Shown: one piece after another, positions 1,305-35,172 of the stretch
Numbering within the stretch: position 1 is the stretch's first letter
How the letters are laid out: every line of letters begins with the position of its first letter
Source of the DNA: an uncultured virus (IMG/VR IMGVR_UViG_3300023174_000066)
Lineage: Duplodnaviria > Heunggongvirae > Uroviricota > Caudoviricetes
IMG/VR virus record: IMGVR_UViG_3300023174_000066
DNA: 64,000 bases
Direction: 5' to 3' (one strand)
Program-made: the position numbers and the translations under genes
The notes under the pieces: generated by a model
Told to the model about the DNA's origin: nothing
Database searches by the model: none
The model's input: the letters and a program-made list of their open reading frames with translations, nothing else

Positions 1305-2075
1305 CTAATTAGATGTCAAGCTAAATTCTGGACGGCGTCGATACCACTCTTCAGGGAACTTTCGATCCATAATCCACTGAGGGTAGTTGGCTTGCTCAAG
1401 CTCAATCTCTGTATAGATATCTCCAGCAAGGTCATGTCCAAAAACCCAGCAGTGCTCAAGTGCTTCGTCCACATACTCTGTGACGAGCTCTTGGTGAGCA
1501 AATCCACGAACCTTACGAATAAGGTACTGAAGATCTCCCATAGAAGTTAAGTGCCATCCCCCAAATACCTGGGGCATTTGGTTTCTTTGCCAACGAACCT
1601 TATCCAAGTCTCTTCCTGCAACATCCCCATAACGAGCGACCACAGCAGTCAACTCGTTCTTGTGGTACCAGTGGAGGCTCATGTGGTACTTAGGCATAAT
1701 CAGCCCGACTGGTTCAGTGATGTCTTTGATCTTGTCAAAGTCCACCCACTCATCTGTGTCGCAGATTAGAACTAGGTCTTCAATCGAAGGATTAAGACTT
1801 GCCAGTACGCCACTCAGCTGAGCACGCTGGTAGTAGTCGTTGTCCCAAGCATTGGCAGACTTCTGTGACTGAACCTTGTGATAGACAATCTTGTCTTCGA
1901 AGTCTTTAAAGCGTTCTCGGTTTTCTTCAAAGTAGAAAGGCTTTGGTTGGTTGGCGTACATGTGGTCGCCCTCAACAATTACAAAATTATCGACAACGTC
2001 AACGTATGTATTAAGCCGACCCTCGAGCATGTCGAGTTCTCCACCAAATGTGATGCAGTCATAGACCTTAGTCAT
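1305..2075 (-). CDS. Glycosyltransferase family 17-like (GlcNAc transferase)
   Basis: VYDCITFGGELDMLE.R, VD.FVIVE, KPFYF, QR, DTDE, GGWHLTS...K...FAHQE. Confidence 0.85.
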   Translation of the reverse strand: MTKVYDCITFGGELDMLEGRLNTYVDVVDNFVIVEGDHMYANQPKPFYFEENRERFKDFEDKIVYHKVQSQKSANAWDNDYYQRAQLSGVLASLNPSIEDLVLICDTDEWVDFDKIKDITEPVGLIMPKYHMSLHWYHKNELTAVVARYGDVAGRDLDKVRWQRNQMPQVFGGWHLTSMGDLQYLIRKVRGFAHQELVTEYVDEALEHCWVFGHDLAGDIYTEIELEQANYPQWIMDRKFPEEWYRRRPEFSLTSN

Positions 2076-2403
2076 TTTTAGTCTCTTCTTCTTTCTTAGC
2101 TTTTATCTTCTGTTTATATTCTACAGCCAGATTGCCAACAGTTTGATTTTTATAGTGCACAGTTTTGACCATGTCTGGACGGAAGCTTCTCCAAGTCTCC
2201 CCACCCTTTGGCCCACCCCACACATCAATCCACTCAGCCCCAGCCGGCGTCACAACATGCTTGATAAATCTAAATCTTCCACGCACACCTTTAATCTTTA
2301 GCTCCGTTCCAGGGGAGACGTTCCTGCCATTGATTTGCATATGGGTAGTGACAACCCAATCGTCATCTAAACGGGGTGTGTTGATTTTTCTACGTCTTAC
2401 CAT
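2068..2403 (-). CDS. Hypothetical protein (leaderless)
   Basis: 111-aa ORF; TGCTATACT -10 box 6 nt before the ATG; overlaps the next gene. Confidence 0.75.
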   Translation of the reverse strand: MVRRRKINTPRLDDDWVVTTHMQINGRNVSPGTELKIKGVRGRFRFIKHVVTPAGAEWIDVWGGPKGGETWRSFRPDMVKTVHYKNQTVGNLAVEYKQKIKAKKEEETKND

Positions 2404-2419
2404 GCTAGGAGTATAGCAC

Positions 2420-2562
2420 GAAACCCCCTAGGCACTCTTTCGAGCTTGTTCCTAGGGGGTCCGGCACTGCGGGATTCCGTGCACAGAATCCTGCTATAAG
2501 CTCGTAGCCATTACAACTACGGCGACGCTATCGAGCGCCAGCATGGACGGGTAAGTGCCATG
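2420..2562 (-). ncRNA. Candidate structured ncRNA or attenuator
   Basis: TGtTACAAT promoter (2571-2579); GGCACU/AGUGCC closing stem (2559-2554 with 2468-2463), internal hairpins, and a 10-bp terminal stem ACCCCCTAGG/CCTAGGGGGT followed by TT. Confidence 0.55.
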
Positions 2563-2580
2563 TTAGATATATTGTAACAC

Positions 2581-2606
2581 AAAACCCCCGCCGAAGCGAG
2601 GGTTTT
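2581..2606 (-). terminator. Intrinsic terminator
   Basis: AAAACCCTCGC-TTCG-GCGGGGGTTTT. Confidence 0.8.
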
Positions 2607-2773
2607 GAGTTTGAAAGTCGTGCTCACCGTTTTCCGGCTATCCACTTCCCCGTACCTACTTGAAGCTTCACTCACAGTCTCAGCTGAACTCTGCACTGAT
2701 ATCGCTCTGCCCCGATAGGCACCTACATAAATATAAGTAATAACTCCCAAGTGTTCAGTCTTGTTTGTCACTA
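2607..2773 (-). ncRNA. Candidate ~170-nt ncRNA between a -10 box and a terminator
   Basis: TACTAT at 2780-2785; stems CUGAAC/GUUCAG and UACUUAUAU/AUGUAGGUG (G-U pairs favour the minus strand); ends at the UUCG terminator. Confidence 0.4.
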
Positions 2774-2796
2774 CTAGTAATAGTACACCATTCTAG

Positions 2797-3327
2797 TTAA
2801 AAATCCAAATCGTTGTAGCGATTTAGTATTTCTTTAGCCCAACTAACTAGATCCTCAACTCGTTGACCAGATGGTTGGCTTGATACCCATATCTCTAGAT
2901 TCTCCAGCCTATTATCATCTCTTATACCATTCTTATGGTGAACATTTTCTCCAGGGAGAAGTTGTCTTCCAAGGTACTGCTCCACCACAAAACGATGCTG
3001 TAGCTGACTCTCTCTTATTCTATTAATCGTTTTTGTTCTCATTAGATAGCCACTACCATTTATATACCAGTCTCCCCACTCCCCAGGATTATTATATTTT
3101 AATGGTCGTAGTTCTCCAAACTTTTTCATTTGGTAGTTGTGACCAGAACAAAGATTATTTCCCTTGTGTGGCTTGGGACAACCATCGAAGGTGCAAGTTT
3201 TAAGTCTCGCACCCTCTCTTGGTCGTAACGTACGAAGTTCTTCTCCCCGAAGACTCATTTTATAGTGAGATTGGCAAAGATTTTTTGCGTACGACTTCCT
3301 TGAGCACTTGTCAAATGAACAATTCAT
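2797..3327 (-). CDS. Free-standing HNH homing endonuclease
   Basis: GY...QHRFVVEQYLGRQLLPGENVHHKNGIRDDNRLENLEIW; two N-terminal C.F..C...LC..H repeats; leaderless promoter at 3334-3342. Confidence 0.92.
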   Translation of the reverse strand: MNCSFDKCSRKSYAKNLCQSHYKMSLRGEELRTLRPREGARLKTCTFDGCPKPHKGNNLCSGHNYQMKKFGELRPLKYNNPGEWGDWYINGSGYLMRTKTINRIRESQLQHRFVVEQYLGRQLLPGENVHHKNGIRDDNRLENLEIWVSSQPSGQRVEDLVSWAKEILNRYNDLDF

Positions 3328-3357
3328 CTAGACAGTATAGCATATTTATGTAATAGG

Positions 3358-5060
<1,703 letters not shown>

Positions 5061-11049: not shown

Positions 11050-15416
<4,367 letters not shown>

Positions 15417-32958: not shown

Positions 32959-35172
32959 CTAGAGCTTACCAGCCTTATCGTCTTTTAGCAACTCGAGAAG
33001 CTTATCCTTATCGCGAACAATCTGCTCGAAGTTGTCTGCTTTTGTTTCCAGAACTTGAAGAACTCGTTCTTCAATAGTTCCTTCTGTAACGTAATCCATG
33101 ATAATAACAGAATCATGAATCTCTGAACCAATTCGGTGAATACGGTCCAAAGCTTGTTTGTGATCAACTAGTGACCAAGGACGCTGAAGCATAATCAGAC
33201 GTCGTGCAGCTGTAAGTGTAACACCGACACCACCAGCTTGCACAGTAAAAAGAATCCATTTAATCTTTCCAGACTGGAAGTCGTCAATGGCACGAGTTCG
33301 CTCATCTTCAGTTTGGGCACCCGTGATAAGACCGTGGGCAATGCCTTCCTTAGTCATACGAGCACTCAGTAGCTCAATGAGCTGACGAGAAACTGCAGCA
33401 ACCGCGACCGAATCGTCCCCAAAGTCGCCTTCTTTAATGTCATCCATGACTGCATCGACCTTGCACGACGGCTCAGCGAGAATAATCTTCTGCTCGAGTG
33501 TCGTTTCGTCAGTCACCATTTCAGCAAAAGAGCTAGCAAACTGGTGAAGACGAGTTGTTTGGGTAAGGACGCTAGGCGCTACGACAGTCTCTCCTGCCCC
33601 TTCAAGCTCTGCAATCATGTGCTCACGCATGTCTTTATATGCTTTTGCCTGCTTTACAGACATCTCAACGTCACGACGTTCAAACATCATTTCAGGAAGC
33701 CAAGGAAGCACACGCTGCTTAAGCATGCGACGCATACGAGGATTGATTGCAGCATGGAACTCCTGCTCCATAGAAGGCTTAACACCAAGGACCATCATCC
33801 CACCAAAAGCGTTGAGCATAGTGTCAACCATACGGTCAATCCAACGAGTCTTGCTGGGCCACTCATCTGGGGACAACCAGTGGAGAATTGACCACATATC
33901 AAGAACGTTGTTTGCAACAGGAGTTCCGGTAAGAGCAAATCGAATCTCTGCATTGCCAGAAGCAGCCCAAAGCGCACGAGTCTGCTTAGACTTAGGTTCC
34001 TTAGAGCGGTGCATCTCATCAGCAATTACTGACTGGAAATCGATGACATTGAGCTCGCGCTGGTGGACTTCGCAACGAACTTCAGAGACACGATCATCGT
34101 GGCCACCGCAAGCGCTACAACGAGCAAGTGCAACAGAGCCATAAGGAGCAAGGCGCGAGTGTGAACGGAGAGACTCCCAGTTAATGACTACTACAGAGCT
34201 AGGACAAGTACAATTTTGCTCGGTCGAGCCAAGCAATGTCTCGCTCTGCTTGGTGAATAGCTGTGTTGCATCTCCTACAGAGGACTCCGCGAATTCTTCC
34301 TGTGTCGTGGCAGTGGTCAAGTACTTCTGCTGTATCAAAGCAGAGTCTGCATCTATGTTCAGCATTTGAGAAGAATTGTTCATACTGCTCAACTGTGATT
34401 CCATAGCTGGCTTCGATGTGCCGTTTTCTGGAAGAAATTGAGCGCTTAGATTTAGGCCATCTAAGACTATTTTCTCGTTGTCTTTGAGCGTATTCGGGGT
34501 TTCGCTGTCTAAGGTCTTTTTCGTAGCAGCTGCGGCACTTGTCTTTTGCATAGACTTTGAGTTTTGGGTGACATTGTGAATTTTGCATGTATTAGATTCT
34601 ATCACTTCTTGAAACTGCTTACGCCGCTGAGTTGCAGTTCCCTTGATAACCTGAACTTTTACTTCAGGCCACCACTTAGTGAACTCACGCTCCCAGTTTT
34701 TCTTAAGGGTGTTAGGGCAAACGATAAGAGCAGGAAACGGATCAGTGCCGTCTTCTTGAAGTTTTTTAAGTGCACGAATAGCCTGAGCAGTCTTACCAAG
34801 ACCAGGCTCGTCAGCAAGCAGCGCACGCTTAGCCGTAGCAAGAAACTTTACACCAGCACGCTGGTGAGGGAACAAGTCGTCGTCACCCTCTCCATCGGGG
34901 AGAACTTCAATGTCACGAAGCGCATTACTCGGGTCAACACGGGTATCACGCTCATGCGTAGCCCAAGCAGTCAAGTTAGAGCCAAGTGCAAGGTCATCTT
35001 TAAATGTAGAGCGGAGGGCAAGACAAGCTGACCAAGATACTGGCAATCTCCATTGCTGTACCTTGTTGTCGTAGCTTGCGCCAGGGATACTCTTACAGAG
35101 TTCCTTGTACCGCCAATCAGCGGTAATATAAATGTACTTACCGGACTCATCCAGTTCTACACCAACGGGCAT
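32959..35172 (-). CDS. SNF2-family helicase with a ~130-aa in-frame insertion
   Basis: LADEPGLGKT, CPNTLKKNW, DEMH, LTGTP..N, AGGVGVTLT, QALDRIHRIG; residues ~196-323 are not helicase-like. Confidence 0.93.
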   Translation of the reverse strand: MPVGVELDESGKYIYITADWRYKELCKSIPGASYDNKVQQWRLPVSWSACLALRSTFKDDLALGSNLTAWATHERDTRVDPSNALRDIEVLPDGEGDDDLFPHQRAGVKFLATAKRALLADEPGLGKTAQAIRALKKLQEDGTDPFPALIVCPNTLKKNWEREFTKWWPEVKVQVIKGTATQRRKQFQEVIESNTCKIHNVTQNSKSMQKTSAAAATKKTLDSETPNTLKDNEKIVLDGLNLSAQFLPENGTSKPAMESQLSSMNNSSQMLNIDADSALIQQKYLTTATTQEEFAESSVGDATQLFTKQSETLLGSTEQNCTCPSSVVVINWESLRSHSRLAPYGSVALARCSACGGHDDRVSEVRCEVHQRELNVIDFQSVIADEMHRSKEPKSKQTRALWAASGNAEIRFALTGTPVANNVLDMWSILHWLSPDEWPSKTRWIDRMVDTMLNAFGGMMVLGVKPSMEQEFHAAINPRMRRMLKQRVLPWLPEMMFERRDVEMSVKQAKAYKDMREHMIAELEGAGETVVAPSVLTQTTRLHQFASSFAEMVTDETTLEQKIILAEPSCKVDAVMDDIKEGDFGDDSVAVAAVSRQLIELLSARMTKEGIAHGLITGAQTEDERTRAIDDFQSGKIKWILFTVQAGGVGVTLTAARRLIMLQRPWSLVDHKQALDRIHRIGSEIHDSVIIMDYVTEGTIEERVLQVLETKADNFEQIVRDKDKLLELLKDDKAGKL
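34199..34588 (-). CDS. Endonuclease VII-family homing endonuclease nested out of frame within the helicase
   Basis: YGITVEQYE...CRLC....DHCHDTGRIRGVLCRRCN.AI.....WLDRAKLYL. Confidence 0.92.
   Translation of the reverse strand: MQNSQCHPKLKVYAKDKCRSCYEKDLRQRNPEYAQRQRENSLRWPKSKRSISSRKRHIEASYGITVEQYEQFFSNAEHRCRLCFDTAEVLDHCHDTGRIRGVLCRRCNTAIHQAERDIAWLDRAKLYLS
34596..34604 (-). promoter_or_regulatory. Internal extended -10 promoter for the nested endonuclease
   Basis: TGaTAGAAT + 7 nt + ATG(34588), matching the phage's other leaderless promoters. Confidence 0.7.

Follow-up and report, generated by a model that had tools for sequence, protein, structure and literature searches.

How might a helicase stay intact when a foreign gene sits in the middle of its own coding sequence? 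This question is raised by a locus in IMG/VR record IMGVR_UViG_3300023174_000066, an uncultured virus of the Caudoviricetes, of which a stretch of 64,000 nucleotides (nt), here called the window, was analyzed. The minus strand of the window encodes a SNF2-family helicase of 737 amino acids (32959..35172), and within this gene lies an insert (34189..34604) that carries, in another frame of the same strand, a gene for a putative homing endonuclease. Read in the helicase frame, the insert opens with a Cys/His pair and closes with a Cys pair. The original prediction, made from the sequence alone, held that these four residues bind one zinc ion and staple the ends of the inserted loop together. After comparing the insert with empty alleles, with a diverged homolog and with unrelated elements, we give roughly even chances to the proposal that this bracket is a functional metal clasp.

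The insert and its nested nuclease gene

Comparison with contigs that carry the empty allele showed that the mobile insert puts 416 nt in place of 14 nt and lengthens the gene by 402 nt (134 codons). It holds an open reading frame (ORF) of 129 amino acids (34199..34588, minus strand) that lies in frame +2 relative to the helicase and belongs to the Endonuclease VII family of the HNH superfamily. The ORF matched Pfam Endonuclease_7 (PF02945) with an E-value of 6.4e-17 and 61.7 bits, the cut-off being 23.6. Its D-H-C-H...C-x-x-C-N core aligned with free-standing relatives, and residues D91, H92, C93, C104, C107 and N108 were invariant in an alignment of eight sequences. We assign the nested ORF as a homing endonuclease of the Endonuclease VII type with putative activity. 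No PDB sequence matched the nuclease at E ≤ 0.01, and a second copy of it was not found in the window.

The nuclease ORF takes up 390 of the 416 nt of the insert. Its ATG (34586-34588) is located 16-18 nt into the insert and its TAG (34199-34201) 10 nt inside the mapped 3' limit. No Shine-Dalgarno motif precedes this ATG, whereas the homologous nuclease of locus L083, described below, has GGAGG 10 nt upstream of its start; a promoter-like site upstream of the window ATG was not found either. A collection of 5.8 billion proteins contains the read-through helicase, but gene calling there missed the nuclease. The insertion point is a short loop between a helix ending in RRKQF-x-E and a strand with the sequence D-V-Y-V-I-N-W-E, and it lies between two helicase blocks that align to solved ISWI/Snf2 ATPases. 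Among relatives, for example in Microbacterium phage Pumpernickel, this loop varies in length.

Related helicases were collected by a scan of IMG/VR, from which the best 80 of 419 related stretches were taken; 43 of those 80 were chosen as full-length and aligned. The insert was absent from all 43, and the matched stretch was at most 1815 nt long in every one of the best 80 of 419. Insert-free helicases include three (L003-L005) that are 98-99% identical to the window helicase in protein and 95-98% in DNA, and the insert is also absent from the helicases of Actinomycetia phage DSL-LC01 (75% identical) and Pumpernickel (62%). Both alleles are present as DNA contigs in public freshwater runs; the 22 public runs with this stretch include no RNA run. 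The contigs of X2 and X3 contain both insert junctions with 0 differences from the window, and in the contigs of X6 and X7 position 34188 is joined to 34605 with 14 other letters between. The flanks of the insert are unlike the empty alleles over about 7 nt on the left and about 15 nt on the right, which is expected if invasion changed the target site. This distribution of alleles marks the 402-nt insert as a mobile nuclease gene that was acquired recently. The original prediction had spoken of a low-complexity insert; the host-frame peptide is more aptly seen as the by-product that results when that gene is translated in the helicase frame.

Upstream of the insert by 110-150 nt, at about 34723-34762 (positions 410-449 of the helicase gene), eight third-codon-position differences from all of L003-L005 are clustered. 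Homing may have left this cluster behind as a tract of co-conversion.

The helicase frame runs stop-free and in register through the 134 added codons, and the same holds for the L083 insert. The rarity of such an open frame was gauged with three null models. Among real window genes a 134-codon stretch of the +1 frame was open at 118 of 12745 positions (0.9%). When the nuclease protein was back-translated with phage codon usage, the host frame was open in 2835 of 30000 samples (9.5%), and when the nuclease's own codons were shuffled it was open in 7931 of 20000 (40%). The high frequency with own codons means that the nuclease codon set itself avoids host-frame stops, which fits a long history of nested life. 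Since splicing would require neither an open frame nor preserved register, these properties support read-through, and we regard it as highly probable from the sequence features that the helicase is read through the insert without RNA or protein splicing.

The Cys/His bracket in two helicases

Reading of the minus strand confirmed the positions of both bracket halves. The 5' half, C196-K-I-H199 in the helicase frame, is encoded by codons 196-199 (34576..34587), and the C196 codon, TGC, consists of the TG of the nuclease ATG and the next base. The 3' half, C321-T-C323-P324 (codons 321-324; 34201..34212), is preceded by N320, and the nuclease TAG overlaps the P324 and S325 codons. C196, H199, C321 and C323 are the sole Cys and His residues of the 136-residue insert. 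They form two tight pairs, C196-x2-H199 and C321-x-C323, in the 2+2 pattern of a structural zinc site of the clasp or ribbon type. C321 and C323 are produced by the only two TTG codons among the nine Leu codons of the nuclease. When nuclease codons were shuffled synonymously with the helicase frame kept open, H199 and the C-x-C survived in 162 of 15751 shuffles (1.0%). In back-translations with phage codon usage, at least two Cys/His residues in both the first and the last eight residues occurred in 63 of 2835 open samples.

A metagenome scan with the nuclease found only one other homologous helicase insert, at locus L083 (identical to L084). It resides in a SNF2 helicase of 774 amino acids that is 38% identical to the window helicase and is encoded in DNA of 66% GC. 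The nuclease of this insert (L083:2498-2914; 138 amino acids; Pfam Endonuclease VII, E 8e-13) is 43% identical to that of the window, also lies in frame +2 and occupies the same loop. With 50.6% GC inside a helicase gene of 66.7% GC, the insert is foreign there too. In the host frame the two inserts are 35% identical and all four bracket residues are kept: the L083 insert opens with K-C-P-I-H and closes with R-C-T-C-P. The original prediction had staked the bracket on conservation in homologous inserts, and both C-x-I-H and C-T-C-P recur in this single case (n=1).

The way in which the 3' motif is conserved is informative about the frame concerned. The overlapping nuclease residues are L-Y-L-S in the window and M-Y-V-S in L083, while the host-frame C-T-C-P is identical, being made from Met and Val codons in L083 and from two Leu codons in the window. 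A single base differs inside the C-T-C-P codons; this difference is silent for the helicase and changes a nuclease residue. Shuffling of L083's own codons left the full bracket in 383 of 10529 open samples (3.6%).

The kinship of the two nucleases rests on a shared 13-residue block and 43-48% identity, not on a tree; the nuclease tree was a quick search with a poorly resolved backbone, in which the pairing of the window with L083 joins two long branches. The L083 nuclease lacks the N-terminal Cys-rich segment of the window nuclease, and its core reads D-H-D-W with a Cys-rich extra loop, compared with D-H-C-H-D-T-G-R in the window. It may belong to a different subtype or be decaying.

A search for further CxxH/CxC-flanked inserts, as suggested with the original prediction, came back empty: the DNA pattern of both bracket halves matched nothing in IMG/VR. 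The window insert translated in the host frame retrieved only an identical copy (P0001), and the L083 insert as query retrieved nothing beyond L083. A profile built from the two insert sequences found only P0010 among 1.84 billion representatives, which are clustered at 50% identity and may hide insert-bearing alleles behind empty ones. Close relatives of the L083 helicase were not found in IMG/VR, nor did the nuclease peptides match anything close there. A tblastn search of 50,697 phage records with either nuclease gave only relatives below 60% identity over most of their length. Two apparent cases of nesting in a DnaB helicase (Rumpelstiltskin and Gabriela) were discarded, as these are free-standing genes downstream of dnaB.

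Two minor features were observed near the insert ends. On the minus strand a terminator-like hairpin with an 8-bp stem (34216-34236) lies inside the 3' end of the nuclease ORF, directly ahead of the C-T-C-P codons; it has no evident conservation in L083. An 8-nt direct repeat, GCAAAATT, occurs on the same strand after the nuclease ATG (34580-34587) and again ahead of the C-T-C codons (34211-34218). The repeat was considered as a splice or recombination signal and dropped; it is absent from L083 and for that reason probably due to chance.

Unrelated inserts, the proposed clasp and its rivals

Two inserts with unrelated nested genes also carry clustered Cys and His residues in the host frame. 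In Pacc40 gp60, a helicase-methylase, the insertion extends from C254 to D415, with borders set by the uninvaded Brocalys allele. It starts with C-R-C-L-C-H-G-D-I-H and ends with H-A-G-A-Q-C-P-C-D, exactly at these borders. In the Applejack methylase gp54 the nested gp55 is an HNH protein of the PF01844 type in frame +1. A C-D-C motif lies six residues past the point where the nuclease begins, C-S-W-C precedes the nuclease end by eight residues, and the uninvaded Tote allele has neither motif. These Cys pairs arise by a different frame offset from those of the +2 elements. Inserts of the Applejack type were found in 18 full-length records that are at least 97.6% identical, which is too little divergence for a conservation test. 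In the Abrogate methylase (L170:601-1755) the nuclease core is deleted in frame and both ends, with C-D-C and C-S-W-C, are kept; the record table lists a similar "mini" insert form for Oogway.

When the four elements were pooled, 20 of the 200 residues that lie within 25 residues of an end were Cys or His, compared with 12 of 468 farther in (one-sided Fisher test, p 9e-5). Omitting L083 and subtracting one start-codon-forced Cys per +2 element gave 14 of 150 and 6 of 378 (p 1e-4).

Nested nucleases inside inteins served as controls. Among 81 collected Endonuclease VII loci, 27 were nested in a longer open frame, namely L083 and 26 ORFs of about 800 amino acids that all carry the nuclease in frame +2. 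Twenty of the 26 were tested, the other six looking like near-duplicates, and a Pfam Intein_splicing domain was found in every one. All 20 tested hosts are terminase large subunits; the terminase domain was matched in 18 of them, with L118 and L130 lacking a match. A host-frame CxxH or CxC at the nuclease ends occurred in 0 of these 20 intein-nested, frame +2 relatives.

The conservation of the bracket in L083, the presence of Cys/His pairs in unrelated intein-less inserts and their absence from intein-nested relatives make a zinc clasp the best reading of the bracket. The Endonuclease VII-type homing gene has entered the SNF2 helicase gene at a surface loop of lobe 1. According to the clasp proposal neither RNA splicing nor protein splicing would take it out, so that the helicase would be made with a loop of 134 residues that is probably unstructured. 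C196, H199, C321 and C323 would bind one metal ion, most likely zinc, tying the entry of the loop to its exit such that the RecA-like fold is kept. The bracket would then be a device that the selfish element carries in the frame of its host and that makes the insertion harmless, doing the job that introns and inteins do by splicing. Whether the bracket functions in this way is, in our judgment, evenly balanced. The zinc-staple idea of the original prediction has in part been strengthened, by the ligands kept in L083 and the 2+2 brackets in two unrelated inserts; the zinc site as such remains putative. We put forward more tentatively, at somewhat under even odds, the wider idea that intein-less in-gene homing endonucleases carry their own split metal clasp, as a third and convergent route to harmlessness. 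By our own reading of the sequences, such an arrangement may be seen in the SNF2 helicase, Pacc40 gp60 and the Applejack methylase.

Several observations weigh against the clasp. C196 is nearly forced, as an ATG followed by C or T reads Cys and TGA is forbidden. L083 is the sole diverged homologous insert, which as a single case is weak evidence; because it shares ancestry with the window insert it is not a fully independent event, and the middle of its insert holds six more Cys/His residues. The Applejack pairs lie 15-20 residues inside the insertion borders, and the 25-residue zone used for the pooled count was chosen after the data had been seen. In a quick tree the 20 intein-nested controls form one clade and hence count as about one observation. 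The host-frame peptide is no more hydrophilic than codon shuffles (98.6th percentile for the window, 73rd for L083), which gives no sign of general host-frame optimization, and that idea was dropped. The conserved ends could instead serve the start and stop of nuclease translation.

In the rival that survives best, the bracket has no function: its Cys and His residues arise incidentally from the nuclease start codon and from NTG codons close to the C-terminus, and a permissive loop alone lets the helicase tolerate the insert; recurrence in L083 would reflect shared ancestry and the other elements coincidence. This view is helped by the rule that in +2 nesting GTG, like ATG, must give Cys when followed by C or T. 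It is also consistent with the total of four Cys/His in the insert, near the 4.7 expected from back-translation, with conservation of the family's C-terminal Y-L motif for nuclease reasons, with the unremarkable host-frame hydropathy and with the variable loop length in relatives such as Pumpernickel. It accounts less well for the 3' motif, where the two inserts reach C321 and C323 through different nuclease residues and yet agree in the host frame, and where the only two TTG Leu codons of the window nuclease are exactly placed. The low shuffle frequencies in both inserts also speak against it. Furthermore, intein-nested relatives with an equal Y-L motif and the same +2 frame are without Cys at that site, and Applejack obtains its pairs through another frame offset. 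We consider a pure by-product rather unlikely.

Alternatively, the insert ends could act as RNA or DNA signals that begin and end translation of the nuclease, or that direct homing and recombination, and would read as Cys and His incidentally. Conservation between the window and L083 sets in precisely with the nuclease ATG, whose preceding 16-20 nt are not conserved, and PMC11855218 treats the translation route of hidden nucleases as an open question. However, the L083 nuclease ORF extends 15 nt past C-T-C-P, so this motif is not tied to the stop codon, and the sole substitution within it is silent for the host and alters the nuclease. Signals of this kind would not be common to the unrelated nucleases of Pacc40 and Applejack, whose host-frame pattern is nonetheless alike. 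Compared with the metal clasp, we find this explanation improbable.

A self-splicing intron, of group I or a type not yet described, with an accidentally open frame would be in line with the established occurrence of HNH genes in phage group I introns, which is also discussed in PMC11855218. Nevertheless, no Rfam intron family matched the window or L083 at E ≤ 10, and the insert RNA folds no better than shuffled sequences (z-score −0.27). With 390 of 416 nt taken by the ORF there is no room for a ribozyme core. An intron would need neither an open frame nor a length that is a multiple of three, yet both are present in the two helicase inserts. An intron is very improbable here.

Least credible of all is a cryptic protein-splicing element with Cys1 and an Asn-Cys junction, perhaps metal-templated instead of HINT-folded: although the window reads C196...N320\|C321, the insertion in Pacc40 has Cys first and Asp last, with Thr next, and related nucleases reside in true inteins, L083 has Arg ahead of the 3' Cys rather than Asn, Gln or Asp (R\|C for the window's N\|C), no Hint or intein domain was detected in the host-frame insert even at E ≤ 10 by the Pfam library that recognized Intein_splicing in 20 of 20 terminase hosts, H199 as the only His leaves neither a block B nor a penultimate His, and the insert exceeds the nuclease ORF by only about 26 nt, which is no room for a splicing domain. 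The original prediction had rightly deemed an intein-like junction the less likely option. A variant of the clasp proposal, in which the metal site unites Cys1 with the +1 nucleophile and allows excision of the loop without a HINT fold, can be given hardly any credence in view of the Arg at the L083 junction.

Related systems and genomic setting

Hidden nuclease genes of this general layout were published in 2025. According to PMC11855218 (Arsenault, Gosselin and Gogarten 2025), the "ShiLan domain" comprises hidden out-of-frame HNH insertions in mycobacteriophage DNA methylases, with a stop-free host frame, no intron or intein signature and an unknown route of nuclease translation. The same source describes a second case, Pacc40 gp60, as an insertion with a hidden ORF of 160 amino acids. 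The Applejack gp54/gp55 hidden HNH insertion is reported in PMC12613952. Preprints further describe actinophage inteins with a "frame 3" endonuclease VII-like homing endonuclease (Gosselin, Arsenault and Gogarten, bioRxiv 10.1101/2025.01.02.630785) and a dnaX intein with a +2 LAGLIDADG ORF (bioRxiv 10.64898/2026.09.14.751524).

The window element resembles the ShiLan insertions in being a sporadic and recent insertion with an open host frame and a nuclease in another frame of the same strand, with a start codon a few nt into the insertion and a stop within about 10 nt of its 3' end, and with neither an intron or intein signature nor an evident ribosome-binding site. It differs in that the host is a SNF2 helicase and not a methylase, the nuclease is of PF02945 and not the PF01844 HNH type, and the phage stems from a low-GC freshwater setting. 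With Pacc40 gp60 it shares an intein-less +2 nested ORF in an SF2 helicase region and host-frame Cys/His clusters at both ends. The nested Pacc40 protein is unrelated, however, with no Pfam match at E ≤ 0.001, its ligand pattern is different and richer, and gp60 also bears a true intein elsewhere. The intein-nested endonucleases VII share the nuclease family, the +2 offset and the open host frame; there the intein splices the junk peptide out, whereas here no intein is present and the peptide probably stays in the helicase, and that clade is without the Cys/His bracket. The window element combines ShiLan-type nesting with an Endonuclease VII gene and no surrounding intein. This combination with a helicase host is new, and the bracket is the new part of the case. 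Host-frame Cys/His pairs go unmentioned in the searched passages of PMC11855218 and PMC12613952, and where the main text of the literature on hidden out-of-frame nucleases, PMC12613952 aside, speaks of zinc or cysteine at all, it refers to the nuclease's own zinc fingers.

If the clasp proposal is true, it would explain how an essential replication enzyme survives a foreign loop of 134 residues without splicing, and it would show selfish genes to be capable of evolving features at the protein level in a reading frame other than their own. Cys/His pairs around an unexplained insert would then be an annotation signature for nuclease genes missed by gene callers, and the bracket would constitute a natural portable "loop-out" module for putting large payloads into enzymes.

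The ligand pattern of the CD4/CD8-Lck zinc clasp is CxC plus CxxC. That clasp joins two proteins, whereas the putative site described here would join segments of a single chain where the inserted loop begins and ends, and includes a His. The likeness to that clasp (PMC12198760) is that two short Cys motifs of separate segments would share one zinc and so be kept together.

Among the loci collected here, the intein-nested Endonuclease VII type is common in low-GC environmental phage contigs. In locus L086, for example, the host spans 1344-3737 and the nested nuclease 2189-2827, and similar loci occur among L092-L151. Both ends of the nuclease ORF extend into conserved intein blocks in this type.

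The window helicase bears both marks of the SNF2 family, an SNF2-related N-terminal domain (Pfam SNF2-rel_dom, E 1e-38) and Helicase_C (E 1.7e-15), and its PDB sequence matches are ISWI/Snf2 ATPases (E 1e-35). A native CxxC...CxxH motif (C352, C355, C367 and H370; 34063..34119, minus strand) is located outside the insert, 29 residues downstream of the bracket. None of its four residues varies among the 44 aligned helicases, and L083 has them as well; the DSL-LC01 helicase has lost two of them. Probably the motif forms a structural zinc site within lobe 1 of the helicase.

The 64,000-nt window is a freshwater actinophage-like genome with 45.7% GC. Its replication module contains PolA, a dCMP-deaminase-domain protein, an ORF of 167 amino acids, the SNF2 helicase, a PD-(D/E)XK nuclease and an AAA_24 recombinase, in a gene order that agrees with that of DSL-LC01. 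The 167-amino-acid ORF has no Pfam match of its own and takes the position of a RuvC-like resolvase annotated in DSL-LC01. Elsewhere in the window a protein of 1335 amino acids (11409-15413, plus strand) has 14 stretches that match the collagen triple-helix repeat (Pfam E 4e-80) and is probably a tail fibre. The collagen repeats of this protein hold an alternative frame of 273 codons open through composition alone.

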